NCBI GenBank assembly: GCA_944392295.1
Contig: CALXWE010000001.1
Location: 67,239-131,238 of the forward strand
Source of the DNA: an uncultured Alphaproteobacteria bacterium
Lineage (GTDB): Bacteria; Pseudomonadota; Alphaproteobacteria; RF32; CAG-239
Direction of reading: 5' to 3'
DNA length: 64,000 nucleotides
Part shown: positions 32,581 to 63,990 of the stretch, piece by piece
How positions within the stretch are numbered: the first letter of the stretch is position 1
How the letters are laid out: every line of letters begins with the position of its first letter
Notes under the pieces: generated by a model
Databases searched by the model: none
Told to the model about the DNA's origin: nothing
What the model saw: only the letters and a program-made list of their open reading frames with translations
Translations under genes and position numbers: made by a program

Positions 32581-32618
32581 AACAACCGCCGCCATTAACT
32601 TGGCGGCGGTTGTTGTTT
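32581..32618. terminator. bidirectional intrinsic terminator between thrS and pilin-like gene
   Basis: aacaaccgccgccattaacttggcggcggttgtt. Confidence 0.65.
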
Positions 32619-33240
32619 ATTTCCATTGGACATAGAGAGCACAGCTTTGCTCATTACAGATGTTGCAAAGAGCATCAAGGTCATTCAATGATATATGACC
32701 TAAACATTTCAAGTTTGCGCCATTACAATATTTATCTCCATATACTGCGCCTTCATTAGTATATTTATCATCATTGGTATATTTTTTTTGAGTAAAGACG
32801 GTATATAAATCGTTACTGTTAGGTTTTACGGCGTTAACAACATTATAACATATTTCTTTTCCCTGAACTGAAGGCTCAAAGCGTAAACCCATTCCGTTAT
32901 TATTTTTGGAAGAATATATCCATACATCATTATTAAATATGTCTTTAAATACGGCAGAATTAGACTTATAAGTTATACCGTCAGGAATCATATTAAGTTT
33001 TTTCAGAATGGATGTATAATAAATTGCCCCATTAGCATCTACAGTATCACCGCTGTCAATTTCATTAACTATCTGCAATGAATTATTAAGAAGTATACTT
33101 ATAGATTCTGCTTGTTTATTGAGCTTATATTTAAACATAGCTTTAGAGTAGCCGGAGAGTGCACCGACGGAAAGTACACCGATGATGGCTAAAACTCCTA
33201 ACATCTCGACCATACTTCTACCCAGTTCATTAAATTTCAT
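32617..33240 (-). CDS. type IV pilin-like protein, paralog 1
   Basis: Prepilin N-terminus MKFNELG|RSMVEMLGVLAIIGVLS (E at +5), C-terminal Cys pair and ...WK end. Confidence 0.75.
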   Translation of the reverse strand: MKFNELGRSMVEMLGVLAIIGVLSVGALSGYSKAMFKYKLNKQAESISILLNNSLQIVNEIDSGDTVDANGAIYYTSILKKLNMIPDGITYKSNSAVFKDIFNNDVWIYSSKNNNGMGLRFEPSVQGKEICYNVVNAVKPNSNDLYTVFTQKKYTNDDKYTNEGAVYGDKYCNGANLKCLGHISLNDLDALCNICNEQSCALYVQWK

Positions 33241-33325
33241 CTAAAACCTCCGAGTTTTGGGTTGTTAAAGGGCTTTAAACGAAATCATAAACCGTTTTTT
33301 TTTTTTGCAATCAAAAAGAGTCTTT
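33241..33325 (-). promoter_or_regulatory. conserved pilin upstream element (promoter/5'UTR) with poly-T tract
   Basis: ctaaaacctccgagttttgggttgttaaagggctttaaacgaaatcataaaccg-T12-gcaa shared by 6 paralogs. Confidence 0.6.
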
Positions 33326-33357
33326 CGATATAAACTATTTTTAATTTTCTTAAATAG

Positions 33358-33984
33358 CTACTTCCACACTGCATATAATCTGCATCTTGTAGCATCATTA
33401 GCGCAATTATTACATAAGATATCAATATCATTTAATGTCATATCTTTAATACAATTATCCGATGAATTACAATATTTATTACCATAAAATCTTCCCATTA
33501 TTTGAGCATTTTCTTTATCATCAGCAGTAAATTTATCAGAAGACACATAGTACAGAATATCCATATGTTGTTTGTACATATTAAAGAGATTAAAACAAAT
33601 TTCTTTATCATTATTATTAGATGTAAAATTGTATCCTATACCAAAAGCTGTCGGATAAGCATATACCCATATACTATTTCCGAACGGATCTACTAAAATT
33701 TTCGGATTATTTACATCTAATCTGACACCATCAGGAAGAAGTCCTAGTTTATCCATTGTTTGTGCAAGAAACAATGCATCGGTAGTGGACGAAGTGTTAT
33801 TAATCTTAGGCATTAGTTGAAAAGCATTCATAAATAAGAAATTAAAGGCTTCGGCTTGTTTATTTAGCTTATATTTAAACATTGCTTTAGAGTAGCCGGA
33901 AATAGCACCGACGGAAAGTACGCCGATGATGGCTAAAACGCCGAGCATTTCGACCATAGAACGACCAAGTTCATTAAATTTCAT
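33358..33984 (-). CDS. type IV pilin-like protein, paralog 2
   Basis: Same N-terminus; divergent C-terminal domain with Cys-rich tail. Confidence 0.75.
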   Translation of the reverse strand: MKFNELGRSMVEMLGVLAIIGVLSVGAISGYSKAMFKYKLNKQAEAFNFLFMNAFQLMPKINNTSSTTDALFLAQTMDKLGLLPDGVRLDVNNPKILVDPFGNSIWVYAYPTAFGIGYNFTSNNNDKEICFNLFNMYKQHMDILYYVSSDKFTADDKENAQIMGRFYGNKYCNSSDNCIKDMTLNDIDILCNNCANDATRCRLYAVWK

Positions 33985-34066
33985 CTAAAACCTCCGAGTT
34001 TTGGGTTGTTAAAGGGCTTTAAACGAAATCATAAACCGTTTTTTTTTTTTGCAACTTTAAAAGGAA
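33985..34066 (-). promoter_or_regulatory. conserved pilin upstream element
   Basis: Same 80-bp element, T12. Confidence 0.6.
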
Positions 34067-34131
34067 AATATACCACTTAAACAAAAAACTCCCATTTTAA
34101 CGGGAGTTTTTTTGTTTAAGTAGAATAAAAT

Positions 34132-35472
34132 TTATTCCTGAACTTCGGGTAAATTACATACTCGGTCTTTTACCGTAACTTTAACACGTTTAACGCGCAT
34201 CTTGTTGGCGGAAATTACTTCGTAAATACAATAATCGTCTTCTACCTTATCACCAACTTTCGGAGCATTGCCCAAAAGGGTAAATACGTAACCGCCAATA
34301 GTGCTCTCTTCACATTCAAATTCAGGCAGTTCAAGATAATCAAAAGCATCTTCAACCAATACTTTACCGTCAAATTCACAAACCTTTTCATTTACTTTAT
34401 GAATTTCTTCCATTTCGGGAGCGTCATGTTCATCGAATATATCTCCGACCAACTCTTCCAAAATATCTTCCATAGAAAGGAGACCTGCCGTTCCACCATA
34501 CTCATCTACCACAATGGCAACATGAGTACGCTTGCGCATCATCAAGTGTAATACTTCGGAAATAGATTGATTTTCAGGTACAAACAATATCTGACGGGCA
34601 ATCTTGTTTAAACGACCTTTTTCCAACTTTTCTTCACTATGTTCCAGCAAATCACGAATATGAATCATACCCACAACATTATCTCTGTCTTTATCACATA
34701 AAGGATAACGTGTGTGTTTGGTACGCTTAACCAAACTCATTACTTCATCAAAGCTGTCGTCCAAAAACAAACATTGCATATCTTGTCTGGGTATCATAAC
34801 TTCGTGAGCATAAATTTCTGAAAAATCAACAGCATTTTGAATAATATCACGTTCGGTATCATCAATAAAACCTCCTCTTTGCGAAGCGTTAACAATTAAC
34901 TTGATTTCTTCTTCAGAGTGAGCTGAATCTTGTTCAGATGCCGGTTCAACACCGATAATATGCAAAATTTTTAAAGTCATTGTATCTAACACCCAAATAA
35001 ATGGGTAAAAAATACGCTTGAACATATATAACGGATAAGCAATCATCAAAACGAAAGTTTCGGTTTTTTGAATAGCCAAAGACTTAGGTATTAATTCACC
35101 CAACACAACGTGCAATAAAGTAATCAAACCGAAAGCAACGGCAATGCTTACCGAATGTAATAAAATCTGATTTTCTTCAAAAACTCCGCCGAACAAATCT
35201 TCAAACAAATGCGCAACTGCAGGCTCACCGATCCAACCTAGACCTAAAGAGGCAAGGGTAATACCAAGCTGAATAGCACTCAAGTAAGAGTCCAGATGTT
35301 CGGTAATTTTTAAGGCAATTTGTGCACGTTTATTACCGGAGTGTATCATTTCTTCGAGTTTTGTGCGACGAATTTTAACAATCGCAAACTCAGACACTAC
35401 GAAGAAAGCATTAAAGAAAATTAAAATTAAAACGAAAATAAAATTAAATAAATAACCATAAAGCGGATTCAT
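34132..35472 (-). CDS. HlyC/CorC-family transporter (DUF21-CBS-CorC)
   Basis: DUF21 TM region (EFAIVKIRRTKLEEM), CBS pair, CorC_HlyC C-terminus. Confidence 0.8.
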   Translation of the reverse strand: MNPLYGYLFNFIFVLILIFFNAFFVVSEFAIVKIRRTKLEEMIHSGNKRAQIALKITEHLDSYLSAIQLGITLASLGLGWIGEPAVAHLFEDLFGGVFEENQILLHSVSIAVAFGLITLLHVVLGELIPKSLAIQKTETFVLMIAYPLYMFKRIFYPFIWVLDTMTLKILHIIGVEPASEQDSAHSEEEIKLIVNASQRGGFIDDTERDIIQNAVDFSEIYAHEVMIPRQDMQCLFLDDSFDEVMSLVKRTKHTRYPLCDKDRDNVVGMIHIRDLLEHSEEKLEKGRLNKIARQILFVPENQSISEVLHLMMRKRTHVAIVVDEYGGTAGLLSMEDILEELVGDIFDEHDAPEMEEIHKVNEKVCEFDGKVLVEDAFDYLELPEFECEESTIGGYVFTLLGNAPKVGDKVEDDYCIYEVISANKMRVKRVKVTVKDRVCNLPEVQE

Positions 35473-35570
35473 TTTATATATAAAACCTATGTTGTTAAAA
35501 AAACAGCGTAGATGATATGCTTAACATATACGTTTGTCAATAGGTGATTATATTTTCAAAACCGTGTTTG

Positions 35571-37646
35571 TTATTTATGTTCCAGATTATACATCAAATT
35601 AGCGTTTTTTAAGCTGTTTTCGTTATATAAAACAGCAAAAGCTTCATCTTTGGTAAACACGGGCTCTAAGTTATAACGAATAAAGTTTTCGAGCTTGATT
35701 TCGGCATTTTTAAGATCGCTGCGTTTATAATCGGGAGCCGGACCGTTTACCGGAAGCATTAAAATATGCAAAGCATTAAGCTCATTATCGGTTATAACAT
35801 TTTTAACATCTATATCATCAAGGTGGTTCTTTTCTAAGAACAATAAATACTCATGAGCTTTTTGCAACACTTCAGGTTTATTAACTTCTTCGGGTATAAC
35901 AAAATAGTTATGACGTTTAGCCCATAATCCGAGTTTTTCTTTAGATGATAAAAATGAAAACGGAATGGATAAAATTAAGCCTACGGTAATAGGGCTCATC
36001 CACCAAAAGAGCCCGTTAGCATATTTCCAAACAACAACGGCGGTTACAATGCCGAGCAAGGTATGCCATTTATGCCGCTGCCAAGCTATTGTCCACGGAG
36101 TTCCCGTATCATCTCGGTTTTGTGATTTCCAGCCGGAATCATGACCGGTAAAAATATCCCAAACAAACTTGCTTTGAAACAGCATCATAATGGGGGCGCT
36201 CAAAGCGCTGAATATAATTTCGGCAACAACACTTTTGATTGCTCCCCAATATCCGCCGATAGTCGATGATTTATTTTGTTTAAGGTATACTACCAGTCCC
36301 AAAAACTTAGGAAAGATAAGCATAAATATTGAAAAAGCAAACATGCTGATAATGCCTATTTTATCAAAAATCGGCCAGGTCGGAAACAAGGTATAAGATT
36401 TCGGGAAATACTCCGGCGGAAAAAAGTTTCGCCCTAAAGCCACCGATAAACCTACCAACAAAAAGCACAACCACAAAGGAGAGGATAAATATGACATAAT
36501 TCCGATGGTGAAATGTACACGGCTTATGGGGTTTAGCCCTTTAGCGGTTACGATTTTTAAATGTTGCATATTTCCCTGACACCACCGTCTGTCGCGCAAA
36601 GCAAAATCAATTAAAGTAGGCGGACATTCTTCATAACTTTCGGTAAGTTCGGGCAACAACCAAGCATTCCAACCGCCGCGTCTTATAAGCGCCGCTTCTA
36701 CAAAATCGTGGCTTAATATTGGTCCGCCGAATGGAGCTTTACCTTTTAATACCGGCAATTTACAACAATCCATAAAAGCTTTGGTTCTGATAATGGCATT
36801 GTGCCCCCAGTAATTGCTATCGCCGAGCTGCCAATAAGCAAGTCCTGCCGAAACAATCGGTCCGTATACTTTTCCGGCAAACTGCTGTACTCTGGCAAAT
36901 AAAGAGTTTTTATTAATACACATCGGCGGCGCCTGAATAATACCGGTTGCCTCATTTGCTTGCATTAATTTGGTCATGGTTACTATGGTTTTTCCGGCAA
37001 GCAAACTATCGGCATCTAAAACTACCATAAAATCATAAAGAGCCCCCCACTTGCTGCAAAAATCTTCAATATTTCCGCTTTTACGGGCCGTATTTTGGGC
37101 TCTGCGGCGATAATACAAGTTCATACCTTCGGGCATATTTTCTTTTGTAGCGAGCCACACGGCTTCTTCTTTAATCCATAGATCAGGGTTGGTTGTATCG
37201 CTTAACACAAACATATCATAGTTTTGTTGTTGACCGGTAAGTTTCAAGCTTTGAGCAATCGCCGCCAAATTTGAAAATACCTCCAGAGGATTTTCGTTAT
37301 ATATCGGCATAAGAATAGCCGTTTTGGTGCTTATGCTTGAATTGTCATCCGGCCAGATAATTCCCGGAACGTTTTTACCTTTTAACAGCTCACAAAATCC
37401 AAAGATGCTCGACCAAAAAAACAATGAAATCCAGCCAAAGGTAAGTACAAACAAAACAATCATTAATACAGAGGTAAACCACGAAGCATCTGAAGGAATT
37501 ACCTCCATCCATTTAAGAGTAGAAATCAAAGTGCATAATAACGTTATTCCGAAAATTTTGACACGACGTCTTTTAATCTGCGAGGCGTTTATGGCTATGG
37601 TTTGAGGTTTCATCGTTACATTCTTTCTTACGTTTTTATTGCTCAA
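35571..37646 (-). CDS. opgH: glucans biosynthesis glucosyltransferase H
   Basis: GT2 core with DADS, RRWCQGN motif, multiple TM. Confidence 0.85.
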   Translation of the reverse strand: MSNKNVRKNVTMKPQTIAINASQIKRRRVKIFGITLLCTLISTLKWMEVIPSDASWFTSVLMIVLFVLTFGWISLFFWSSIFGFCELLKGKNVPGIIWPDDNSSISTKTAILMPIYNENPLEVFSNLAAIAQSLKLTGQQQNYDMFVLSDTTNPDLWIKEEAVWLATKENMPEGMNLYYRRRAQNTARKSGNIEDFCSKWGALYDFMVVLDADSLLAGKTIVTMTKLMQANEATGIIQAPPMCINKNSLFARVQQFAGKVYGPIVSAGLAYWQLGDSNYWGHNAIIRTKAFMDCCKLPVLKGKAPFGGPILSHDFVEAALIRRGGWNAWLLPELTESYEECPPTLIDFALRDRRWCQGNMQHLKIVTAKGLNPISRVHFTIGIMSYLSSPLWLCFLLVGLSVALGRNFFPPEYFPKSYTLFPTWPIFDKIGIISMFAFSIFMLIFPKFLGLVVYLKQNKSSTIGGYWGAIKSVVAEIIFSALSAPIMMLFQSKFVWDIFTGHDSGWKSQNRDDTGTPWTIAWQRHKWHTLLGIVTAVVVWKYANGLFWWMSPITVGLILSIPFSFLSSKEKLGLWAKRHNYFVIPEEVNKPEVLQKAHEYLLFLEKNHLDDIDVKNVITDNELNALHILMLPVNGPAPDYKRSDLKNAEIKLENFIRYNLEPVFTKDEAFAVLYNENSLKNANLMYNLEHK

Positions 37647-39775: not shown

Positions 39776-42700
39776 ATGCAAAATCGACGTCCTGTTTTTT
39801 ATATATTTTTAATTTTTTACTTTATTGGTTTTCCATATTCATCATATGCAATTACAACAATAATTGAAGCAGGAGAGACCGTAAACGGCGGAGATGTTAA
39901 TTCCGTTGTTACGCAAAAGGTATACGGAGAAGCCGATAATTTTACGGTATTGGGAACACAGCAGGTTATGAGCGGAGGCATCACAAAGAACAGTAATTTA
40001 TATCCTTACGGTACGCAGGAAGTTATGTCAGGTGGAACATCTTATAATACTAATTTACAGTATTCGTCAGTTCAGAGAATTTACGGCACATCTTACGATA
40101 CCACCATTGCCTCCCGAGCATCGGCTAACGTTTACGGCGGCGGTTTGGCGGAAAGTACGGTTTTAAACGGAGGTTCTTTTTATGTTTTGAGCGGAGGTAC
40201 GGCAGAAAGCAGTACCATTAACTTCGGTCACGGATATGTGTCGGGAACGGATAGTAATACTACGGTTAAGGGCGGAATTTGGGAAATAAGGAGCGGCGGT
40301 AAATCTGATGGGGCTGTTATAAGCGGAGGAGAACAACAGGTAGATTCCGGGGGAAGTGCCACAAATTCCACAATTAACAGCGGAGGATTACAAGAGGTAT
40401 ACGGTACGGCACAGGGGTCCATGGTACAAGGCGGAGTTTTGAAAGTAATAGACAGCGGCAGTATAGAAAACACCACATTAAATAGCGGAAGGATAGATGT
40501 CGGTTCGGGAACATCGGCAACCGGGACCGTGGTAAACGGCGGAACGGAATATGTATACGGAAGCGATACGCAAAGTACCATAAACGGCGGATTACAATAT
40601 GTGGGAAGCAGCGGTACGGTTATGAATGTAATATTGCAGAATCAAGGATCTCAGAGTGTTTACGGTACGGCAAACAATGTAACGGTGCAAAATGGCGGAG
40701 TGCAAAATGTCAGATACGGAGGTGTCAGTAATAATACCACATTGTTAAGCGGTGGGGTACAAAATGTTACGGGCACGGATAACAATGCGGTTATTAACGG
40801 AGGCACGCAGACGGTGGAAAGTGACGGTATAGCCAACGGCACGACATTAAACGGCGGAAACCAAAAGGTATTCGGTACGGTCAATAGTGTTAATATTAAA
40901 GGTGGAATACAGAATATATTAAGCGGCGGTCTGTCAAGCGGAAGTACCGTAAACGGCGGAGAGATGATGGTTGCAAGCGGAGCAACGGCTGAAAATACGG
41001 TCTTAAATACTGGAAGTGAGCTGGTATACGGTACGGATAATAATGCCGTTATTAACGGGGGCACACAGACGATAGAAAACGGCGGTATAGCAAGCGACAC
41101 AACGCTAAACGGCGGCGAGCAGGTAGTATTATCTGGAGCAACGGTAAACAATGCAAGCATCAACGGGGGCACGCAGGAAGTATCGGGCACGGTAAACGGC
41201 ACGAATATCAAAGGCGGAGTGCAGAGTATTTTGAGTGGCGGTGTTGCAAGCGGAAGTACCGTAAACGGCGGAGAGATGATGGTTGCAAGCGGAGCAACGG
41301 CTGAAAATACGGTCTTAAATACTGGAAGTGAGCTGGTATACGGTACGGATAACAATGCGGTTATTAACGGGGGCACGCAGACGATAGAGAGCAGCGGTAT
41401 AGCGAACGGCACAACGCTAAACGGCGGCGAGCAGATAGTATTATCTGGAGCAATAGCTAAAAACAGCAAGTTACAAGGAGGAACTTTAACTTTGTACAGT
41501 GGCGGAAATCTTGAGGGAATAACCAATGTCACCAATGCAGTTATGAATATTTCAGGAAGTAATGATATATCTTCTCTCAATGTTAGCAATTCTCAAATCA
41601 ATTTTTTAAGAGATTCCGGTTTTAGTACTCTTAATATAGAAAACTTAAATGGTAGCGGTACCTTTAATTTAAGTAGTAATTTAGCAGATGATGAGTCGGA
41701 TATTTTAAATATCACCAACGGGAACGGTAATTTTGGTCTGATTATTCACGATTATAGCTATGAAGGAAATTTACCCTCAAGCTTTAAGGTTATTAACGAA
41801 GCTTCAGCCACTGATGATTTTTACTTAATCGGCGGGGCTGTAGACGTAGGAGCATATGAGTATGAATTACAATATGACGGTAATGATTGGGTATTGGTAA
41901 GAACTCCAAATCTTACAGAAAGCGCGATCATTGCCAAAAACACATATACTTCACTTTCATCGGTTTTTTACAGTATGCTGACACCTGTATATAATCGTAT
42001 AAAAAGTAACAGAAGAAATGGCAGCCCTGAACACAATTTATGGTTCAAAGGCATTGGTCATGAAGTTAAGCTCAATTACAAAGATGATACAAAGAGCCGT
42101 TTACAGATTTATGGCGGAGCTTTAGGGTATGATAAGAATATTTGGCAAAGTGGCGGCAATAGCTTAAAATTAGGATTTTTTGGCAGTTATGCTTATTCCC
42201 ATCAAGATTACGATCGTCAAGGTCGAGGTCATGCCGATACGCAAAACTTTGGCTTATATGCCGGAATATTGACTAATAATAATTGGTTTTTAGATATCGC
42301 GGGCACCTATTTTATGCATGATCAAAGAGTACAAAGTTATACTCCGGCCATGTATGAAGTTATCGGAAAGTATAACACCAACGGCTGGCACGGAGCTGTA
42401 TTTATAGGTCGCAGAGTTGACCTTGCCAAAGATTGGTATATTGAGCCTAATTTAGGTTTTAACTACATTCATGTTGAGGGTATTGATTACCGAACCAATT
42501 TCAACACCTTAGTAACGGCCGATGATATGGATTACATGAATGCTCAAATAGGTAGTAATATTGGCAAGGGAGTAGAATTGGCGGAAGATACTAAGCTTAA
42601 TATTTTCGGAAGCTTTAATCTGATACATGATTGGGACGGAAAAAGTACGGTTCAAGTAGCAAACTACACATTTAATGAGGACATATCTTCGGTGCGCTAT

Positions 42701-42829
42701 GAACTGGGAATTGGTCTGGAAGCAATAAAAACAGATAAGGGCAATGCATACATAGAAGCAACCACCCAACTAGGCAATCGTGTCAAGATGCCCTGGGAGA
42801 TAAATTTAGGTGTAAGTTTTGCTTTTTAA
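39776..42829 (+). CDS. autotransporter with repetitive passenger domain and C-terminal beta-barrel
   Basis: Signal peptide; ~19-aa GG..V.G repeats; C-terminal ...GVSFAF terminal aromatic. Confidence 0.8.
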   Translation: MQNRRPVFYIFLIFYFIGFPYSSYAITTIIEAGETVNGGDVNSVVTQKVYGEADNFTVLGTQQVMSGGITKNSNLYPYGTQEVMSGGTSYNTNLQYSSVQRIYGTSYDTTIASRASANVYGGGLAESTVLNGGSFYVLSGGTAESSTINFGHGYVSGTDSNTTVKGGIWEIRSGGKSDGAVISGGEQQVDSGGSATNSTINSGGLQEVYGTAQGSMVQGGVLKVIDSGSIENTTLNSGRIDVGSGTSATGTVVNGGTEYVYGSDTQSTINGGLQYVGSSGTVMNVILQNQGSQSVYGTANNVTVQNGGVQNVRYGGVSNNTTLLSGGVQNVTGTDNNAVINGGTQTVESDGIANGTTLNGGNQKVFGTVNSVNIKGGIQNILSGGLSSGSTVNGGEMMVASGATAENTVLNTGSELVYGTDNNAVINGGTQTIENGGIASDTTLNGGEQVVLSGATVNNASINGGTQEVSGTVNGTNIKGGVQSILSGGVASGSTVNGGEMMVASGATAENTVLNTGSELVYGTDNNAVINGGTQTIESSGIANGTTLNGGEQIVLSGAIAKNSKLQGGTLTLYSGGNLEGITNVTNAVMNISGSNDISSLNVSNSQINFLRDSGFSTLNIENLNGSGTFNLSSNLADDESDILNITNGNGNFGLIIHDYSYEGNLPSSFKVINEASATDDFYLIGGAVDVGAYEYELQYDGNDWVLVRTPNLTESAIIAKNTYTSLSSVFYSMLTPVYNRIKSNRRNGSPEHNLWFKGIGHEVKLNYKDDTKSRLQIYGGALGYDKNIWQSGGNSLKLGFFGSYAYSHQDYDRQGRGHADTQNFGLYAGILTNNNWFLDIAGTYFMHDQRVQSYTPAMYEVIGKYNTNGWHGAVFIGRRVDLAKDWYIEPNLGFNYIHVEGIDYRTNFNTLVTADDMDYMNAQIGSNIGKGVELAEDTKLNIFGSFNLIHDWDGKSTVQVANYTFNEDISSVRYELGIGLEAIKTDKGNAYIEATTQLGNRVKMPWEINLGVSFAF

Positions 42830-42830
42830 T

Positions 42831-45039: not shown

Positions 45040-45390
45040 ATGAAAAAAGTTTTATTGGCCGTATTTGTTGGTTTGTTTTTGTTGAGCGGCTGTGGCAAAA
45101 AAGAAGCATTAAGCTCAGACAAGATATATTATTTTTACTCTGAAAGTTGCAGTCATTGTAAAGAGGCGAGCGCTTACATTAGTCAACATTATCCCGATTT
45201 AGAGATGATAAAAGTTGATGTAACAACCAAAGCCGGATACGATATGATAATTAAGTGTGCCCAAAAGTTTAAGTTGGGTAATCGTATAGGTACGCCACTG
45301 TTTTGCATGGGCGACAGATATATTATGGGTTGGTCGGATAGAGATGCCGCCAAGTTTAATGCGTATATCAAGCCCTATTTAGATAAGTAG
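45040..45390 (+). CDS. thioredoxin-fold lipoprotein (CxxC)
   Basis: Lipobox LLSGC; CSHC motif. Confidence 0.55.
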   Translation: MKKVLLAVFVGLFLLSGCGKKEALSSDKIYYFYSESCSHCKEASAYISQHYPDLEMIKVDVTTKAGYDMIIKCAQKFKLGNRIGTPLFCMGDRYIMGWSDRDAAKFNAYIKPYLDK

Positions 45391-45440: not shown

Positions 45441-46055
45441 TTATCTGAAGGTAATGTATAATAAACATTGAGAAGATTCGCAAAAGCTACATCTATCATA
45501 AATATCGCTTATTTGCATATCTTTAAGACATACTACATTTTTTGTGCACCCAACATCTCCATATATGCGTGTAGACCATTCGTTATCTTTATCATCATAG
45601 TCGTTTCTAAAAAAAATAGTGCTAATGGCGCTATGATTTTCTTTGGCGGTAGTTATAATGTTTATACACTGTTCCATAGAAGAGTGAGAAGCATCAATAT
45701 AATATATAATTCCCAAATAGTTTGTCTCGTGGTAGTAGATACTCATTTCCGTTTTAAAAACATCAGATATTCGGCTTAAATTTGAAGTAAGCATGTCCTC
45801 AGGTATTTCGCCCAATTTATTAAGGTAAGGTATCAGGTTATTTTGTCCGCTAGCTGCTCCTGTTTTTATCCGTAAGTCATTTAGGTATCTAATACAAGCA
45901 TTGATAATGGTGTTGGCTTGTTCAGCCTGTTTATTAAGTTTATACTTCATCATAGCTTTAGAGTATCCGGAGATAGCACCGACGGAAAGAACGCCGATAA
46001 TGGCAAGAACGCCGAGCATTTCGACCATAGAGCGCCCAAGTTGATTAAATTTCAT
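45441..46055 (-). CDS. type IV pilin-like protein, paralog 3
   Basis: MKFNQLGRSMVEMLGVLAIIGVLSVGAISGYSKAMMKYKLNKQAE. Confidence 0.75.
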   Translation of the reverse strand: MKFNQLGRSMVEMLGVLAIIGVLSVGAISGYSKAMMKYKLNKQAEQANTIINACIRYLNDLRIKTGAASGQNNLIPYLNKLGEIPEDMLTSNLSRISDVFKTEMSIYYHETNYLGIIYYIDASHSSMEQCINIITTAKENHSAISTIFFRNDYDDKDNEWSTRIYGDVGCTKNVVCLKDMQISDIYDRCSFCESSQCLLYITFR

Positions 46056-46136
46056 TTAAAAACCTCCAAAGTTTGGGTTGTTAAAGGCATTTAAACGAAA
46101 TCATAAACCGTTTTTTTTTTTTGCAACTTTAAAAGG
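46056..46136 (-). promoter_or_regulatory. conserved pilin upstream element
   Basis: T12 tract. Confidence 0.6.
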
Positions 46137-48304: not shown

Positions 48305-48916
48305 TTATCGCCAAATGATATATAAGCCCCACCATGTGGTATCTTCATTAAATATGCTGCACAGCTCTTCGGCTTTGGCAAGAGTTAAATTGCGCAAACA
48401 TTTATCTTCGGAACTACAATACTTATCACCCCGCAGGCCTGATGCCAATAATTGAGGGCCGTCAGTTATATAATTTAGGAAAATGGAATTTATATCGGCA
48501 TGAAATTCTTTGGCAATCATATATAGATTGCGGCATTGGGTGGTGTTTCCGGCAGAATCTAAATTGACATTAATACCTACATATCCGGTATTGTGATGAT
48601 ATATCCAGTAGCGATTCTTGAACACATCCTCAATTTGATCTTCCACGTTGGCAATATACATCTCTTTGGGGATCTCATTTAGTTTTTTCAAAATAGGGAT
48701 TAAACTGAAAGCATCGGTGGAACCGTCGTTAATCATTAAATCTTTATAATAACGGGCAACGGTACTGATAATAGTATTTATTTGCTCGGTCTGCTTGTTG
48801 AGTTTGTACTTAAACATCGCCTTCGAGTAACCGGCAATCGCGCCGACGTAAAGTACCCCGATAATCGCCAGCACGCCCAGCATCTCAACCATAGAACGCC
48901 CTCTTTCTTGCATCAA
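48305..48916 (-). CDS. type IV pilin-like protein, paralog 4 (variant N-terminus MMQERG|RSMVEML)
   Basis: Same hydrophobic N-domain. Confidence 0.7.
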   Translation of the reverse strand: MMQERGRSMVEMLGVLAIIGVLYVGAIAGYSKAMFKYKLNKQTEQINTIISTVARYYKDLMINDGSTDAFSLIPILKKLNEIPKEMYIANVEDQIEDVFKNRYWIYHHNTGYVGINVNLDSAGNTTQCRNLYMIAKEFHADINSIFLNYITDGPQLLASGLRGDKYCSSEDKCLRNLTLAKAEELCSIFNEDTTWWGLYIIWR

Positions 48917-48992
48917 AAAACTCCTTAGAATACGTAAAAATCATCACTTTCGCGTCATTCTAAACCGTTTTTTTTTGCAACTTTAAAATGCG
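48917..48992 (-). promoter_or_regulatory. divergent copy of pilin upstream element (T9 tract)
   Basis: Only the aaaccg-T9-gcaactttaaaa core conserved. Confidence 0.5.
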
Positions 48993-49048
48993 GGTGGGGT
49001 ATGGCGTAAGGCTAATGCCGACAAGCATAGCCAAAAGATAAAGCCGGT

Positions 49049-49477
49049 TTAAAAGATTTCATGCAGATACATACTGTGTGGAAAAATAAAAATATGCACA
49101 AAGAGCCATACAAAAGAAAAAACACGGGCAAACCAAACAATCCGATTTTTTTGATTATAAATCCACCAGCCGAGCAACACCATCAGATTATCACAAATCA
49201 ATCGGTTGCTCCAATGTTCCACGCCTTGCAGCCAAAAAGCAACAGCTTGACCGCCGAGGCCGATCTCCAGATAATGCTCCAAAGTTTCCCACATATAGGC
49301 CGCCAAAAGGGTTAAAATAAAGCTGATGCGCAATTTCAAACGGTCGGAAACATCTTCATCACCGACAATTTTTTTTGTCATCCATGCCGCAAAACAGGCC
49401 ACGGATATCCCCATGATGATATGCTCAATTGACCAAACGTCAAAAGATGCTTCTGTTTTTAATCCCCACCAAACCAT
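49049..49477 (-). CDS. hypothetical membrane protein
   Basis: 4 TM segments. Confidence 0.45.
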   Translation of the reverse strand: MVWWGLKTEASFDVWSIEHIIMGISVACFAAWMTKKIVGDEDVSDRLKLRISFILTLLAAYMWETLEHYLEIGLGGQAVAFWLQGVEHWSNRLICDNLMVLLGWWIYNQKNRIVWFARVFSFVWLFVHIFIFPHSMYLHEIF

Positions 49478-54318: not shown

Positions 54319-54957
54319 TTAAATCCACAAGATGTTAATCCATGAACGTTTACCATCTAAATCGGCACATATATCACCGATTTTAGTTAAGGTTAAATCT
54401 CTTAAACATGAATTTTTAGATGTGTTGCAATACTTATCGCCGTAATACTCATATAGGGAACCGCCGTTACCTACCTGAGGCGTAACTTTCCATAAATCGG
54501 CGTGCATTTGCTGTACAACGGTTAAAATATTTTGGCATGAGTTGAAATCAACATACGAGTTAGCAATTATATTGTTATCGTGTTCAACAGTAAGCCGAAA
54601 ATAACCATCGCCATAAGCATTTCCCTCTCTAACCCAATATAGTAGTATTAAATTGCCCATAGCATCTTCAAATCCCTGATTTCTATACACCTCATTAGCA
54701 GGAATAAGCCCTAGCTTGTACATAACAGGAACTAAATATGTAAAAGAAGAACTAACATTTTGTGCATTAAATTCAGGGCGATTATACAACTCGAAGGCAT
54801 TATATATAAGGGTTGATATTTGCTCGGCTTGTTTATTAAGTTTATACTTCATCATTGCCTTTGAGTAGCCGGAAATGGCGCCGATAGATAAAACGCCAAT
54901 GATAGCAAGAACGCCGAGCATTTCGACCATAGACCGCCCAAGTTGACTAAATTTCAT
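54319..54957 (-). CDS. type IV pilin-like protein, paralog 5
   Basis: MKFSQLGRSMVEMLGVLAIIGVLSIGAISGYSKAMMKYKLNKQAE. Confidence 0.75.
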   Translation of the reverse strand: MKFSQLGRSMVEMLGVLAIIGVLSIGAISGYSKAMMKYKLNKQAEQISTLIYNAFELYNRPEFNAQNVSSSFTYLVPVMYKLGLIPANEVYRNQGFEDAMGNLILLYWVREGNAYGDGYFRLTVEHDNNIIANSYVDFNSCQNILTVVQQMHADLWKVTPQVGNGGSLYEYYGDKYCNTSKNSCLRDLTLTKIGDICADLDGKRSWINILWI

Positions 54958-55040
54958 CTAAAACCTCCAAAGTTTTATTTGTTAAAGGACTTTAAACGAA
55001 ATCATAAACTGTTTTTTTTTTTTGCAACTTTAAAAGGAGC
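54958..55040 (-). promoter_or_regulatory. conserved pilin upstream element (T13 tract)
   Basis: Same element. Confidence 0.6.
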
Positions 55041-57104: not shown

Positions 57105-57194
57105 TCAAAGAGCTTAGCTTACAAAAACCCCCATCGTTAAAAACGATGGGGGTTTTGATATAAAGCTTTTTTCCAAGTAATTATTGAAGCAAAT

Positions 57195-57800
57195 TTATTT
57201 TATTCTCAATTTTAGATGAGAATCTTCTTTATTAATATGTTCAGCACATAAATTATCTATTTCAGACATGGTTAAATCAACTAAGCATTTACTGTTGTTT
57301 GTACAGTATTTATCGCCATAGACATTACTAATTGCTTCATCTTCATTTCCATAGTTACTAAGAGAAGATACGACATAAATATCTTCATGAAACTCTTTCA
57401 CAATAGTAAAAAATTGACGACATACAGTCAGAGATTGGTCTGAATTATCAATTTTTAACAAACAATAAAGAGTGTCTCCGGTACTTTCAGAAGTTATTTG
57501 TACTTTATTTCCAAAAATATCGTAAACATAACTGTTGTCATTTTTAATCATTTCTGTTGGAATTAGATTTAATTTTATATAAGTACCAGTTATATCATAA
57601 TATTTTCCTGATGGGGTGATTTTTCCCACATATTCAACCATTGATGCAATAATTTGCCGATACTGTGCTGACATTTTATTTAGCTTATATTTCATCATTG
57701 CCTTGTTATAGCCGGAGATAGCACCTACTGATAATACTCCGATAATTGCGAGTACTCCTAACATCTCGACCATAGAGCGTCCAAGTTGATTAAATTTCAT
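57195..57800 (-). CDS. type IV pilin-like protein, paralog 6
   Basis: Same N-terminus. Confidence 0.75.
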   Translation of the reverse strand: MKFNQLGRSMVEMLGVLAIIGVLSVGAISGYNKAMMKYKLNKMSAQYRQIIASMVEYVGKITPSGKYYDITGTYIKLNLIPTEMIKNDNSYVYDIFGNKVQITSESTGDTLYCLLKIDNSDQSLTVCRQFFTIVKEFHEDIYVVSSLSNYGNEDEAISNVYGDKYCTNNSKCLVDLTMSEIDNLCAEHINKEDSHLKLRIK

Positions 57801-57888
57801 CTAAAATCTCCAAAGTTTGGGTTGTTAAAAAGCTTTAAACGAAATCATAAACCGTTTTTTTTTTTTGCAACTTTAAAAGGAATTATAT
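57801..57888 (-). promoter_or_regulatory. conserved pilin upstream element (T12)
   Basis: Same element. Confidence 0.6.
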
Positions 57889-57958
57889 GCAGGTAATGAA
57901 GAGCATAAAAAACTCCCTAAAACAATTAGGGAGTTTTTTATTGAAAATAAGTAACCGT

Positions 57959-59428: not shown

Positions 59429-59564
59429 TTTATCCTCCTAAATTAATACTGCTTTAAAATATAATCACAAAAAATAAAAAAATGCTAAATATTTTAAAAT
59501 AAGCATAGACAAATAAGATTTTATATTTTACACTTTAGACAAAACAATAAAAAAGGTTGTAACA

Positions 59565-61133
59565 ATGGCAGAAAAAGGCAGCAAATACGCAAGAAAGCAT
59601 CAACAAATCGTAGAAATAGATGATGACGATTACCAAACAGAATCTTTAGAAGATGATAGCTTTTTAGGAGTTATTTATGATGATGTAACTTTTTTAAGAA
59701 CATTTCAAAAGCTAACGTTAACCGAACAGATTAAGGCGTACAGAACATTAAAACGCTTAGCCGAACCCAAAAGTAACAAAAAGATAAGTCCCTCGGATAG
59801 GCTTTTAGCGCAAACATCAAAATACAAACTTGAGCAGATAAATTTGGCAGCCGGACTACGTTTGGAAGAAAGACAGCATTATGCCTTAAGTGCCGATGAG
59901 CTACATATTATACGTATGGATTGTTATGGCTCGGTAGATGAGCGTCCGCAGCATCAACTTAGTACATATTATCGCGAATTTTTGAAAAATAAGTTACCAA
60001 AGCAAAGTCCTTTTAAGGCGTATGATTTAGATAAAGCCCCGGCTTGGCAGTTATTTCGTCAGTTCCGAAATTTCAGAAAAATTGAAAGGTCGGTTAAACA
60101 ATATCTTGTAAAATCTCGTTTAAATCCCGAAGCACTAAAGGTTATGGGAGTACGCGATTTTTCCGATGTGATTTTCAAAGCGTTTGCCGATAAGTCGAAA
60201 AACGGAAAATCTTTTTTCTTAAAAGGAGATGCTCCGCGTAATGCCTTTGTTAAAAAAGTTTCTAAAAAATTTGAGAGTAAAATCGGTCAATTACTTCGTC
60301 AAGAACATTTAGATGAAAGATATATAAGGTCATTATTAAGCGCCATGCAAACCTTTGGCACTACGGATGCCGAAAAGATTATAATTACGGAAATATATTT
60401 TACGCCGCGTATTTTAAAAGATATGGCTAAGGCCCGTATGGATCATCGGCAATATCATGTAGGAGATGAAATTCCGCCGGCACTTATCAAATCATTAATG
60501 AAGGCAGATAAAGGCTCTATTTTGGCGGCACGAGACGAAGCGGGCAATTTATTGTCGAGCAGTAATTTCCCGTCTTTTGAAGTCCATCATAAAACGGCAG
60601 TGTTAGAAAGCGGAAGTCTGGCATTTATAGCTATGGTCAACTACGAAAACAATTATGTTTTGGTTCCGGCTGATGTCCATCGCCACGTTTTGCACGGCTT
60701 TGATAGGTTAACCAGTGCCGCACATAAAGAAGCGTACCACCGCCGGCTTGAATTTATAGATAAAAATGCCACTTTTATGTCAGGTTTATCTGAAGACAAA
60801 CAGATTTATTTCGATTGGACTAAACGTCCTTCTTACAAAGAGCATCTAAAAGAAGATTCCCAGTATATAGTTTCTTATGATGAGGTTATGGGAAAATTAG
60901 CGCTTAATCGTCAAGAATATATGGAAGGCAGTAAAAGCGTTGAGTTTGATGTAGACAGCGTAGTTCAGGTTATACGTCATAAGCGAGGCATCACCAGCGA
61001 TGAATTGCTTAAAAAGCGCAAGATTAATCGGTTAGAAAAAAACAATAAGCAGGCCATAGCAAAGATTTCGGAAGACAAGATTAATCAGACACTGTCAAAA
61101 TACATCAAGTCGCAAAAATCACGCAAAAAATAA
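59565..61133 (+). CDS. large hypothetical protein with C-terminal HNH/AHH-like His-Me finger motif (candidate nuclease toxin/effector)
   Basis: EVHHK...NNYVLVPADVHRHVLHG resembles HH-N-H arrangement; followed by SUKH immunity-like gene. Confidence 0.4.
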   Translation: MAEKGSKYARKHQQIVEIDDDDYQTESLEDDSFLGVIYDDVTFLRTFQKLTLTEQIKAYRTLKRLAEPKSNKKISPSDRLLAQTSKYKLEQINLAAGLRLEERQHYALSADELHIIRMDCYGSVDERPQHQLSTYYREFLKNKLPKQSPFKAYDLDKAPAWQLFRQFRNFRKIERSVKQYLVKSRLNPEALKVMGVRDFSDVIFKAFADKSKNGKSFFLKGDAPRNAFVKKVSKKFESKIGQLLRQEHLDERYIRSLLSAMQTFGTTDAEKIIITEIYFTPRILKDMAKARMDHRQYHVGDEIPPALIKSLMKADKGSILAARDEAGNLLSSSNFPSFEVHHKTAVLESGSLAFIAMVNYENNYVLVPADVHRHVLHGFDRLTSAAHKEAYHRRLEFIDKNATFMSGLSEDKQIYFDWTKRPSYKEHLKEDSQYIVSYDEVMGKLALNRQEYMEGSKSVEFDVDSVVQVIRHKRGITSDELLKKRKINRLEKNNKQAIAKISEDKINQTLSKYIKSQKSRKK

Positions 61134-61148
61134 CGGGAAAGTAATGTC

Positions 61149-61571
61149 ATGGATAAAATATTATCACTATTGTCCGGCAGTCAGAGTAGATTAAAGTTAG
61201 GAGCTCCGCTTAACGCTAAAGATGTAATTAGTGTTCAAAAAGCACTGACCAGGGAGGGCTTGCCGATTTTGCCGCCTGATTTTATCAATTTTTTAAGACA
61301 TTATAACGGGGTTAAAAGTCAAGATTCGCAAATTTTGGGCATTGCGCCGGTAGCAGACGGGCAAGATGACATAGTATCCTTTAATGATGAGTATAATCAG
61401 TCGCCGGATATGGTGATTTTGGGCTATGATGATTTTGGTTATTTAGTTTATAACACTTCAACAAAAACCTATCAGTTAGTTGACAAAGAGGGCGGTATGG
61501 TGATAGAAGAGTTTTTTGAAGATGAACTGGAATATGCATTGATAAGTGTTATACATGTTAACTGCGAATAA
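61149..61571 (+). CDS. SUKH (Smi1/Knr4)-family immunity protein
   Basis: LPILPPDFINFLRHYNGV and MVILGYDDFGYLVYN motifs typical of SMI1/KNR4. Confidence 0.65.
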   Translation: MDKILSLLSGSQSRLKLGAPLNAKDVISVQKALTREGLPILPPDFINFLRHYNGVKSQDSQILGIAPVADGQDDIVSFNDEYNQSPDMVILGYDDFGYLVYNTSTKTYQLVDKEGGMVIEEFFEDELEYALISVIHVNCE

Positions 61572-62517
61572 AAACAATATATATAAAAACACGCCGGAAA
61601 ACATAGATTACGCAGCTTCCGTAATTAAGAAGGGCGGTCTTGTTGCGTTTCCGACGGAAACGGTTTACGGGCTTGGTGCAAATGTTTACGATGCCAAAGC
61701 GGTAGCCTCGATTTTTGCGGCAAAAGGACGTCCGTCGTTTAATCCGTTAATTTCGCATATTGCGGAAAAAGATTTTGTAAAAGAATATGCCAAAGTCGAT
61801 GAGCGGGTTTTAGCTTTAGCCGATAAGTTTTGGCCCGGTCCTTTAACATTTGTTTTAAACCGTATAGATGATAATCCGGCGCTTGATTTAGCCTGTGCCG
61901 GTTTAAGGACGGTAACGGTACGTATGCCCAATCACCCGGTAGCATTAAGCCTTATTAAAAAGAGCGGGGTGCCGATTGTGGCGCCTTCTGCCAACAAGTC
62001 GCAGACCATAAGCCCGACTACGGCGCAACACGTTGCCGACAGTTTAGGCGATAAGGTCGATGTTATCATTGACGGAGGAGCCTGCAAGGTAGGTGTAGAA
62101 TCAACCATTATCGATGTTACGGGCAAAAATGTTGTTTTGTTAAGAGCAGGGGGTATTGCTCTGGAAGATTTAGAGGCTTTTTTGGGTGAAAAAGTGCTTA
62201 TTTCTCACGGCAATCCCGATTTACCGACATCTCCCGGGCAAATGTTAAAGCACTATGCACCGTCTCATGAGCTGCGTATTAACGCTCAAAGCCGTAATGC
62301 CGATGAGTTTTTTATAGGCTTTGGCGATGTAAAGGATTGTGATTTGAATTTAAGTCCGAGCGGAGATTTATGTGAGGCGGCGGCAAACTTGTTTGCTTAT
62401 ATGCGTTTGGCAGATTCGCAAGACAAATATCCAAAGTTGGCTATGTCGCCGATACCCGAAAGAGGGTTGGGATTGGCCATTAATGACAGAATCCGCCGTG
62501 CCGCATATAAAAAGTAA
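61555..62517 (+). CDS. tsaC: L-threonylcarbamoyladenylate synthase (Sua5/YrdC family, long form)
   Basis: GGLVAFPTETVYGLGA motif; C-terminal Sua5 domain. Confidence 0.85.
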   Translation: MLTANKNNIYKNTPENIDYAASVIKKGGLVAFPTETVYGLGANVYDAKAVASIFAAKGRPSFNPLISHIAEKDFVKEYAKVDERVLALADKFWPGPLTFVLNRIDDNPALDLACAGLRTVTVRMPNHPVALSLIKKSGVPIVAPSANKSQTISPTTAQHVADSLGDKVDVIIDGGACKVGVESTIIDVTGKNVVLLRAGGIALEDLEAFLGEKVLISHGNPDLPTSPGQMLKHYAPSHELRINAQSRNADEFFIGFGDVKDCDLNLSPSGDLCEAAANLFAYMRLADSQDKYPKLAMSPIPERGLGLAINDRIRRAAYKK

Positions 62518-62582
62518 GCTAAAGGTTGACATTTATAATTTAGCGCTTAAGATTTTTAAAAATTAATTTTAAGGAGAAAGTT

Positions 62583-63734
62583 ATGCTAAAAGACACAAAT
62601 AAATGTAAATGTGATAAAGATTGCAAGTGCGGCTGCCAAGAAGGCAAAGAGTGCACCTGCGGTTGTGATAAAGATTGCAAGTGCGGTTGCCAAGAAGGTA
62701 AAGAATGTACTTGCGGATGCGATAAAGATTGCAAGTGCGGTTGCCAAGAAGGTAAAGAATGTACTTGCGGATGCGATAAAGATTGCAAGTGCGGCTGCCA
62801 AGAAGGCAAAGAGTGCACCTGCGGTTGTGATAAAGATTGCAAGTGCGGCTGCCAAGAGGGAAAAGAATGCACCTGTGGTTGCGGTAAAGATTGCAAGTGC
62901 GGTTGCCAAGAAGGTAAAGAATGTACTTGCGGATGCGATAAAGATTGCAAGTGCGGTTGCCGGGAAGGCAAAGAATGTACTTGCGGCTGTGGCAAGGATT
63001 GCAAATGCGGTTGTGGCCGTGGCAAAAAAGTTGTCAGTGCCGCAATGTTGGCTTTTGGTTTGGTGCTTGGCGGATTTTTCCCCGGATACTACTATTACCA
63101 TGCTAAAATGGATGCCAACAGTGTTGTAGTTAAAGGTTTGGCCGAAATGGACGTTAAGGCCGACTTAGCTATCTGGAATATCAAATTTGTTGTAACCGGC
63201 GATGATGTAATCAAAGCTCAACAAGATATGGAAAAGCAAAAAACAGTTGTGCAAGATTTTTTAATCAAGAATAACATTAAAGCCGAAGAAATCAGCGTTG
63301 GAAGGCTGGAAACCAACGATTTAATGGCTAATCCGTATCGCAGCAACAACGATAACAATGTTCGTTTTATTTTAACGCAAAACATAACCGTAAAATCGGC
63401 AAATGTTGATAACATTGCCAAAGTGCTTAATAAATCCGGCGATTTAGTGGCTCAAGGCGTGATATTCAATCAAGATTACGGTTACCCGGTATCATATTTA
63501 TTTACGGGTTTAAATAACATTAAGCCGCAAATGCTTGCCGAAGCTACCAAAAACGCCAAAGAGGCAGCTGAAGAGTTTGCCAAAAATTCCGGCAGCAAAG
63601 TCGGAAAAATTCGCCATGCCAATCAGGGGGTATTTTCAATTTTGCCGCGAGAGCAGAGTGCCTATGCCTCAGAGATGCAAGAGATTGAAAAGAAGGTAAG
63701 AGTAGTATCCACGATTGAATACTGGTTGGAATAA
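62583..63734 (+). CDS. membrane-anchored SIMPL-domain (DUF541/YggE-like) protein with N-terminal metallothionein-like Cys-rich tandem repeats
   Basis: ~7.5 copies of CDKDCKCGCQEGKECTCG, then TM (MLAFGLVLGGFF), then ~220-aa SIMPL-like domain. Confidence 0.65.
   Translation: MLKDTNKCKCDKDCKCGCQEGKECTCGCDKDCKCGCQEGKECTCGCDKDCKCGCQEGKECTCGCDKDCKCGCQEGKECTCGCDKDCKCGCQEGKECTCGCGKDCKCGCQEGKECTCGCDKDCKCGCREGKECTCGCGKDCKCGCGRGKKVVSAAMLAFGLVLGGFFPGYYYYHAKMDANSVVVKGLAEMDVKADLAIWNIKFVVTGDDVIKAQQDMEKQKTVVQDFLIKNNIKAEEISVGRLETNDLMANPYRSNNDNNVRFILTQNITVKSANVDNIAKVLNKSGDLVAQGVIFNQDYGYPVSYLFTGLNNIKPQMLAEATKNAKEAAEEFAKNSGSKVGKIRHANQGVFSILPREQSAYASEMQEIEKKVRVVSTIEYWLE
62608..63030 (+). repeat. 54-bp tandem repeat array (~7.5 units) in coding sequence
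   Basis: Near-perfect 54-nt units encoding 18-aa Cys-rich repeat; all six frames lack stops here. Confidence 0.8.
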
Positions 63735-63792
63735 GATAATTAATCAGTCAATTATAAATATAAGACCGCCGTCATAGATGGCGGTCTTTATT

Positions 63793-63990
63793 TTAAAAAT
63801 CTATAAAGGCTACTCTAATATCAAACACACGTTTCTGTGCGTCTTCATTAAATACATCGCAATAATTATATAAATCGGTTACCGACATATTTTTAAGACG
63901 TGGCTGGTTATTGATTTTTGTTCCGTTTTCGCCATACACAACACCCTTAAAATTATAAGAATTTTCACCTGCCGAGTTCATTAAATTTCA
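63793..63990 (-). pseudogene. truncated pilin-like gene (paralog 7): start MKFNELGR retained, hydrophobic N-domain deleted, frameshifted
   Basis: atgaaatttaatgaactcggcagg followed by tga in frame; a shifted frame continues 62 aa. Confidence 0.5.

Follow-up and report, generated by a model that had tools for sequence, protein, structure and literature searches.

Dispersed genes for type IVb-like pilins with a polymorphic poly(A) tract in their putative promoters: candidate phase variation of surface filaments in uncultured gut Alphaproteobacteria

Along a 64,000-nucleotide stretch of DNA from an uncultured alphaproteobacterium of the RF32 lineage (contig CALXWE010000001.1 of assembly GCA_944392295.1; the whole stretch is termed the window here), six intact genes for predicted type IV pilins and the remnant of a seventh are dispersed among housekeeping genes, and each intact one is preceded by what looks like a promoter of its own, in which an uninterrupted run of adenines fills most of the space between putative -35 and -10 hexamers. 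As judged from sequence comparison, these genes belong to a family of type IVb-like pilin genes, very large and so far without annotation, whose members are found in uncultured Alphaproteobacteria of gut and rumen. The A-tract of these genes, which is the T-run of the element as first described, appears to be a hypermutable promoter spacer that is polymorphic between strains, a concrete mechanism of variation which the original prediction about this DNA did not name. The interpretation favoured below, and held to be reasonably probable, is slippage-driven and independent promoter phase variation of interchangeable pilin subunits, to which recombination between cassettes is added.

Seven pilin-like copies, all on the minus strand, had been predicted, and the open reading frames (ORFs), their translations and motif scans bear this out. 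The six intact ORFs encode 201–212 amino acids and, like the remnant, have a prepilin-type N-terminus, its consensus in the six being MKF(N/S)(E/Q)LGRSMVEMLGVLAIIGVLS..GY(S/N)KAM.KYKLNK. The first ~45 residues are near-identical, beyond them the paralogs diverge, and on alignment the identity of whole proteins to the first copy is 39–49%. That first copy is at 32617–33240 (207 aa) and is the second gene of a tandem pair, the other member of which, at 33358–33984 (208 aa), was used for structural modelling. The others, again delimited from ORFs and alignment, are at 45441–46055 (204 aa), 48305–48913 (202 aa), 54319–54957 (212 aa) and 57195–57800 (201 aa). All seven predicted positions hold, with corrections to two of the starts. 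The ORF of the fourth copy spans 48305–48916, and its likeliest start is the ATG at 48913, which gives the leader MQERG followed by RSMVEML; the remnant occupies 63793–63991, its ATG beginning at 63991, and reads MKFNELGR, a stop and then, out of frame, the C-terminal ~60 aa of a family member, which makes it an internal-deletion pseudogene. A complete promoter for it, with an A11 tract, is just beyond the end of the window. Four cysteines are invariant across the six intact paralogs; the predicted W(K/R) C-terminal tail is present in four of the six. Searches with degenerate DNA patterns, one made for the N-terminus and one for the upstream element, gave 5–6 matches apiece where none was expected in shuffles, and neither pattern matched within positions 1–32,600 of the window. 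The density is about one pilin gene per 5 kb of chromosomal DNA in the window.

What are the proteins? Across 55 aligned members the Gly at -1 and the Glu at +5 with respect to the predicted cleavage site are invariant, as is the hydrophobic alpha1 stretch (in alignment numbering G7, E12 and M13–L23 are invariant or nearly so). The class III (prepilin) leaders in the window are 5–7 aa long, mature length is ~195–205 aa, and position +1 of the predicted mature protein is Arg in place of Phe or Met. An AlphaFold2 model of the 33358 copy, made from the 55-sequence alignment (predicted local distance difference test, pLDDT, 83; predicted template modelling score, pTM, 0.73), begins with an N-terminal helix of 53 residues, after which comes an alpha/beta domain, and conforms to the pilin fold, in which a long N-terminal helix packs on an antiparallel beta-sheet; the predicted fold is closest to those of the type IVb major pilins CofA, TcpA and PilS, over 152–156 residues, rather than to pseudopilins. 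A profile-to-PDB sequence search had BfpA and TcpA as its two best matches, both non-significant (E = 0.04–0.07). No curated Pfam or NCBIfam model reaches its cut-off, and the matches are N-terminal: TIGR02532 gives 10–14 bits against 16.3, and Pfam PilS_N (type IVb) gives 21 bits against 22 in one copy only, that at 57195 (E = 3.7e-4). The expectation that the proteins would be type IV pilin-like is upheld by the cleavage-site residues, the hydrophobic helix and the predicted fold, and the structure prediction that had been proposed as a check, carried out on this one copy, returned a type IVb-like C-domain. On the model, the proteins are concluded to be type IV pilins whose globular domain is type IVb-like, and which are atypical in their leader of 5–7 residues and in having Arg at +1.

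The window is a small sample of the family. A word-seeded search scored 8,000 candidates, 7,894 of them significant, and all were unnamed or ‘hypothetical protein’ entries of alphaproteobacterial metagenome-assembled genomes (MAGs). Exhaustive searching of 1.84 billion cluster representatives with a profile gave 5,663 clusters (50% identity) at E ≤ 1e-3 and 633 at E ≤ 1e-30, the matches being mostly full length. A scan of one genome for each GTDB species confirmed at least 565 matches; among the best 80 alone, up to 12 loci came from a single MAG, the sources being human, deer, rumen and other gut samples. In the genome and metagenome scans many matches start ~50–250 nt from a contig end, which indicates that assemblies break at the repeated 5′ part. 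The closest relatives of the window paralogs in other species are 57–61% identical to them, whereas paralogs within their own genome are 36–48% identical to each other; the repertoire is therefore old and maintained. Full-text literature searches for the peptide motif, and for pilins of RF32 or of Alphaproteobacteria, returned nothing relevant, and by that measure the family has not been described.

On the gene strand the upstream element is laid out as ..TTTAAAG-TTGC-A12-CGGTT-TATGAT-(~45 nt)-GGAGG-(6 nt)-ATG. For the first copy the promoter core, TTGCAA-(A-tract)-CGGTT-TATGAT, is at 33284–33310 of the minus strand, with A12 at 33295–33306, and is followed by a conserved 5′ leader (33241–33283) in which the Shine-Dalgarno GGAGG stands 6 nt before the ATG. 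The corresponding minus-strand cores are at 34028–34054 for the second copy (A12 at 34039–34050), 46100–46126 for the third (A12 at 46111–46122), 55001–55027 for the fifth (A12 at 55012–55023) and 57844–57870 for the sixth (A12 at 57855–57866), where the pepA terminator (57905–57941) is just upstream. The fourth is different: its core at 48957–48980 is TTGCAA-(A-tract)-CGGTT-TAGAAT with A9 at 48968–48976, and only the promoter part, TTTAAAGTTGC-A9-CGGTTTAGAAT, is shared, its 5′ untranslated region (UTR) being of another type. An element of ~80 bp had been predicted ahead of every full-length copy; the promoter core is indeed in all of them, the ~80-nt leader in five, and ahead of the 32617 copy the flank upstream of TTGC differs. 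The further claim that the copies are complete and separately promoted fares well, as every intact copy has promoter-like hexamers, a Shine-Dalgarno sequence, a start codon and the full N-terminus; the terminator-like hairpins that flank several of the pilin units support monocistronic expression.

In ungapped comparison within the window, upstream identity is 0.79–0.90 in six of ten pairs and has a mean of 0.74 over all ten, the four pairs that involve the 45441 copy being at 0.52–0.58, a shortfall attributed to a 1-nt indel that such a comparison cannot handle. In the N-terminal coding region 53% of the codons for the same amino acid are identical. Leader and promoter are therefore constrained beyond the level of synonymous sites. 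An Rfam search of the upstream elements found no known RNA. Hairpins in the 5′ UTR that might sequester the Shine-Dalgarno were considered and set aside, their z-scores (-0.8 to -1.8) not being significant and two UTR types being without them; the one predicted for the first copy, which would pair the 5′ end of the leader with the Shine-Dalgarno and AUG, scores -1.4 and is likewise not significant. As a separate observation, such pairing of the 5′ end with the Shine-Dalgarno/AUG region is predicted in two 5′ UTR types that are unrelated to each other, that of the window (33241–33283 and its equivalents) and the type 2 UTR of other MAGs (z = -1.4 to -1.8).

Comparison of 93 copies from many MAG species identifies what is kept: a block upstream of TTGC (GACTC.T.AAA.A), conserved across species, then TTGC, the pure A run, and a TA..AT hexamer whose variants are TAAAAT, TAGAAT, TATGAT, TAATAT, TAAGAT and TATAAT. 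The leader after the hexamer varies by lineage and the Shine-Dalgarno reappears before the ATG. Two promoter types, with different UTRs, can be distinguished, one with a modal A12 followed by CGGTT and the other with a modal A10 followed by CGCGAGC, and both come to 15 nt from TTGCAA to TA..AT in 72 of the 93 copies, the remainder having 12–14 or 16 nt. A pure run of 8–13 A’s is present in every promoter found, in many species. The element is best understood as a putative sigma-70-type promoter with an A-tract spacer and a 5′ UTR, the hexamers being assigned from conservation. Two other readings were rejected on inspection, sigma-54 (-24/-12) as the GG core positions do not match and sigma-28 (TAAA-N15-GCCGATAA) as the CGA core positions do not. 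Which spacer length would be the active one? Ahead of the other window genes, strong matches to a sigma-70-like pattern have spacings that peak at 17 nt (6 of 15), but this is not decisive for the ON length because the number of such matches equals chance expectation. The Caulobacter promoter consensus would put a 15-nt spacing in mid-range. The tightness of the 15-nt mode, kept by compensation between the two promoter types, suggests that this spacing is the selected state and probably the active one.

All six homopolymers of 9 nt or longer in the window are the promoter A-tracts. Orthologous loci of other strains, with flanks 97–100% identical, were fetched by exact-protein look-ups of the neighbouring genes, and at five of the six loci tract length differs between near-identical strains, several of the values recurring in independent samples. 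The tract ahead of the 32617 copy is A12, A11 or A9 (the last in two independent assemblies), that of 33358 is A12, or A11 in one other strain, that of 45441 is A12, or A11 in two independent samples, that of 54319 is A12, A13 or A8, and that of 57195 is A12, or A11 in one strain; the tract of 48305 is invariant at A9 in six of six assemblies. One contig, over 12,041 nt aligned to the window, has no substitution and a single extra A, in the tract of 54319. Of the 72 gap events listed, 8 fall in the tracts, which amount to ~0.2% of the aligned DNA; many of the other events are paired alignment compensations. Two features expected of a contingency locus are thus at hand, a homopolymer between putative -35 and -10 hexamers in 93 copies and variation of its length between strains, with the promoter itself assigned from conserved motifs.

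How might such a set of genes operate? Slippage of the poly(A) run at replication would change the distance between -35 and -10 and so turn each pilin gene up or down independently of the others, i.e., promoter phase variation. The near-invariant alpha1 helix would form the core of the filament and be recognised by one shared assembly machine, with which its invariance would keep all variants compatible, and the divergent globular domain would make up its surface. In addition, copies would be deleted, replaced and converted by recombination between the conserved 5′ cassettes. The outcome would be a population in which cells differ in the combination of pilin surfaces that they display, with a plausible benefit against host antibodies or pilus-specific phages, or in varied adhesion. 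The original prediction took a dispersed family of variants to suggest antigenic or functional variation of a surface filament. This is partly supported: it gains from the pilin-like nature of the proteins, from the copies being complete units and from a mechanism of variation now being visible, and it loses from the failure to find assembly-gene motifs.

That failure is one of several findings that pull the other way. Neither the Walker A motif of GspE, PilB or CpaF type nor the GGGD motif of PilD was found in the window or in 648 + 274 kb of related loci, so that the search for pilus assembly genes, which had been proposed as a check, came back empty for the ATPase and the prepilin peptidase alike over those stretches. 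Arg at +1 of a mature pilin is unusual and is atypical for major pilins, Pfam PF07963 (N_methyl) scores 12.7–15.8 bits, below its cut-off of 21.2, and a Foldseek comparison of the 33358 model with the PDB gave nothing significant. On the promoter side, a 17-nt spacing, the Escherichia coli optimum, is present in none of the 93 copies, the mode of 15 nt being two short of it, and the tight conservation of that mode, compensated between the two promoter types, points to one selected spacing rather than to free switching. Tract lengths were read in consensus assemblies, which cannot show heterogeneity within a population, and some of the differences come from low-coverage contigs. In L085 (at a contig end), L095 and L188 TTGC itself reads A-rich (ATAA, TAAA or TAGA), with a longer A run. 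These three variants, from low-coverage or contig-end assemblies, have a homopolymer-phasing pattern and are judged probably to be sequencing or assembly artefacts; if real, they would be -35 knock-out variants.

Some of these findings are what would be expected if the paralogs were functionally specialised pilins, with different adhesion targets for instance, expressed constitutively or under conventional regulation. The A-tract would then be a fixed structural element, whether a spacer that is rigid or curved or a place where a regulator or nucleoid protein binds, and its changes of length a neutral by-product. The modal spacing, compensated between promoter types, would then be one selected geometry, the conserved block upstream of TTGC could be a regulator site, the greater similarity of relatives in other species than of paralogs in the same genome suggests distinct functions that have long been kept, and the 48305 tract, at A9 in all six assemblies, would be unexceptional. 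However, a mixed and non-mutable spacer would give the same geometry, yet a pure run of A’s is kept in every promoter found; changes in its length are the most frequent, and sometimes the sole, difference between strains; and ~20% of copies are off the modal spacing. Specialisation on its own is accordingly regarded as possible but rather unlikely, and phase variation through the poly(A) spacer is retained as the explanation of the tract.

A more elaborate form of that explanation is prompted by the leader peptides. In the L093–L095 orthologs of 54319–54957 a 108-nt palindromic insertion stands in frame exactly between the G-R and the S-M-V-E codons, and 47 of 114 family copies with a detectable promoter have insertions of 39–275 nt between the ATG and the cleavage motif (G, then RSMVEML). 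In 45 of these 47 the canonical ATG is in frame with no stop, giving leaders of 18–95 aa. Two types of inserted element were characterised. One is a long hairpin of ~100 nt in which 8 of 21 predicted pairs have compensatory changes; the other comprises hairpins with an 8-bp stem and a constant TCAAG or CTTGA loop, for which there are at least six different, perfectly complementary stems and both orientations. The BLAST matches of the two types adjoin pilin signal peptides in 17 of 17 and 54 of 54 cases, and among the small hairpins in all the DNA examined 62 of 71 do. Leader insertions are also present in other MAG loci, e.g., L001, L032, L054, L060–L062, L072 and L106. Surface diversification might then be programmed, on the basis of one standard 5′ cassette, in three layers: a poly(A) switch that acts independently on each of dozens of genes, leader palindromes as cis signals that may act in recombination, processing or translational control, and exchange of gene bodies between loci by way of the cassettes. 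As a whole this is considered improbable; if true, it would be a new combinatorial mechanism of antigenic variation for type IV filaments in a gut commensal.

Alternatively, the proteins might not be subunits of an external pilus at all, the prepilin signal serving for export or anchoring through a machine like that of the type II secretion system (T2SS) or through some other type IV filament machine; pseudopilins, archaeal binding proteins with class III signals and the pilin-like families of Planctomycetes are comparable cases. No copy in the window or in the ~920 kb of related loci is adjoined by assembly genes, there are weak N-terminal matches to the GspH, XpsH and ComGE models of NCBIfam, and the atypical Arg at +1 would be in keeping. 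Against this, the fold of the whole protein, as modelled, matches type IVb major pilins and not pseudopilins, the GspH and XpsH pseudopilin matches reach 11–15 bits where the cut-offs are 80–160 and are confined to the N-terminal helix, and the context of a gspG–K-type operon is not seen around the window copies, as judged from the Pfam matches of their neighbours, or at the strain loci. A further 10 kb past the window end contain housekeeping genes only. It is an improbable alternative, and interchangeable subunits of a type IVb-like filament remain the favoured identity.

What of selection, and of the recombination invoked above? Between strains the pilin orthologs have ratios of non-synonymous to synonymous substitution rates (dN/dS) of 0.05–0.18, with no positive selection in these comparisons, and the high pilin dS is common to some neighbouring genes, so that the pattern is one of a recombination mosaic. 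Exchange of copies is seen directly. The tandem pair (33358 and 32617; window 32617–33984) is down to one gene in three strains (L184, L187 and L188), either gene of the pair being absent in some strains, and in two of the three the first promoter is joined to the body of the second gene, as expected from recombination between repeated 5′ parts. At the 45441 site strain L094 has a different allele, with 30% identity in the C-domain. The 48305 gene, together with an adjacent ORF for a 142-aa membrane protein (48305–49477; loci compared L094, L095, L097, L099, L194 and L196), is replaced in four strains by a plus-strand gene of 420 aa, which is unannotated and stands between tolB and glycosyltransferases. 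The 54319 ortholog of L093–L095 has a different 5′ end, and in L093 (12075–13997), between the 54319-type pilin and dnaK, an inserted two-gene AAA_21 and RloB pair that looks like a defence system adjoins the pilin promoter. Could the copies then be silent donors, or pseudogenes in decay, from which gene conversion supplies a single expression locus in the manner of Neisseria pilS and pilE? The conversion-like swaps of 5′ ends and of whole alleles, and the one deletion remnant, are of the kind expected, but with dN/dS of 0.05–0.18, a promoter-like element, Shine-Dalgarno, ATG and complete signal peptide in every intact copy, and an N-terminus kept invariant by purifying selection despite divergence at synonymous sites, this is very improbable. 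The low ratios indicate that the genes are functional, hence not silent cassettes and not T2SS pseudopilins from a single operon, and the case named beforehand as fatal to the original prediction, pseudopilins of a single operon with the present copies silent, does not describe what was found.

By Pfam, the neighbours of the pilin genes include thrS, a CNNM transporter, tolB, recA, dnaK and pepA, and there is no type IVb assembly operon among them. The identities predicted for the interleaved housekeeping genes (thrS, tolB, recA, dnaK and pepA) hold, but not all are on the plus strand, pepA being on the minus strand. All seven pilin copies are on the minus strand, which is C-rich, as against 13 of ~30 other chromosomal genes when counted from the gene list, and among 52 related loci of at least 5 kb the pilin strand has a negative GC skew in 41 (p = 4e-5). 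The bias may be due to placement on the lagging strand, head-on to replication, or to opposition to neighbouring genes. Convergent with the 45441 pilin is a gene for a small lipoprotein (45040–45390) with a thioredoxin-like CxxC (SCSHC). This protein may be a disulfide oxidoreductase, a point of interest given the four conserved Cys of the pilins. Elsewhere, positions 1–24000 are prophage-like (a tRNA at 2187–2259, a large terminase at 4096–5418 and many ORFs without a Pfam match), and L089 and L090 have a phage-lysozyme gene at the position syntenic to this region. The autotransporter adhesin at 39776–42829 (AIDA, pertactin and beta-domain) varies in length between strains, from 516 aa in L089 to 1017 aa in the window and 1035 aa in L090. 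The SIMPL-domain protein at 62583–63734 has N-terminal Cys-rich tandem repeats of 18 aa (54 nt; CGCDKDCKCGCQEGKECT), the number of which differs between otherwise identical strains, the protein being 383 aa here and called as 229 aa in L092.

Why should this matter? Type IVb pili have mostly been known from enteric pathogens, as colonisation factors with a single major pilin to each operon, and here widespread uncultured alphaproteobacteria of gut and rumen carry many complete, dispersed genes for type IVb-like pilins. The standardised hypermutable promoter layout has so far been tied to the lipoproteins of mycoplasmas and to a handful of fimbrial genes; should the proposed switch work, there would be a new example of surface variation in a commensal, directed against immunoglobulin A and phages. 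The repeated cassette breaks contigs and so explains the poor assembly of these genomes, and a structural assignment becomes available for thousands of proteins now labelled ‘hypothetical’.

Among known systems, the likeness to the type IVb major pilins, i.e., CofA of the CFA/III pilus of enterotoxigenic Escherichia coli, TcpA of Vibrio cholerae, PilS of Salmonella Typhi and R64, and BfpA, is in a mature length of ~195–205 aa, Glu at +5, a residue other than Phe at +1, conserved pairs of Cys in the C-terminal region and gut-associated organisms. However, the leaders in the window are of 5–7 aa rather than 13–30 aa and are followed by Arg, the genes are dispersed and monocistronic whereas the tcp, cof and bfp pilins sit in their assembly operon, each genome has many paralogs where those systems have one major pilin, and the sequence similarity is non-significant.

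For the arrangement of the genes the nearest counterpart is in Mycoplasma hyorhinis, a wall-less Mollicute, whose Vlp proteins are lipoproteins and whose vlp genes are clustered. There too (and also with maa2 and vmm) promoter, 5′ UTR and signal peptide are the same from gene to gene and stand ahead of a divergent surface domain, and there too a homopolymer is in the -35/-10 spacer, though for the pilin genes that position is putative. A mutable homopolymer placed between -35 and -10 is the classic layout for promoter phase variation: in mycoplasmas, indels in it switch transcription ON and OFF (PMC2268961). Combinatorial expression of the Vlp proteins is ascribed to Rosengarten and Wise in a passage of PMC11868660. 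The differences are that here pilin-fold proteins of a Gram-negative alphaproteobacterium are involved, their genes are dispersed among housekeeping genes, and the switching is a proposed one. In Bordetella pertussis fim2, fim3 and fimX are scattered away from the assembly operon and the length of a poly-C in the promoter sets their expression. Scattered subunit genes, each with a homopolymer in its promoter, are thus common to both, but the fim products are of the chaperone-usher class, there are three genes, and the tract is between the BvgA site and the -10; here there are type IV pilins, and dozens of genes. With Neisseria pilE and pilS there is likeness in the proteins, type IV pilins whose N-terminus is conserved and whose C-domain varies, and in the many variant copies, which recombine. 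Neisseria pilS copies, though, are silent donors without promoter or N-terminus, and the copies here are complete and have their own promoters, the proposed switch being slippage rather than conversion into one expression site.

The leader insertions have a counterpart of their own. Rickettsia palindromic elements are in-frame palindromes in coding sequence that are read through as peptide (PMC10969869), and the likeness to them, as to bacterial interspersed mosaic elements (BIME) and palindromes resembling repetitive extragenic palindromic (REP) sequences, is that palindromes of ~40–275 nt are carried in frame in alphaproteobacterial coding sequence. The Rickettsia elements, however, are scattered over many unrelated genes, whereas those described here are confined to one site in one gene family. 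Type IVb-like pilins and promoter phase variation by simple sequence repeats are each known; what is new is their occurrence, that of phase variation being proposed, in an unstudied lineage and on an unusual scale.

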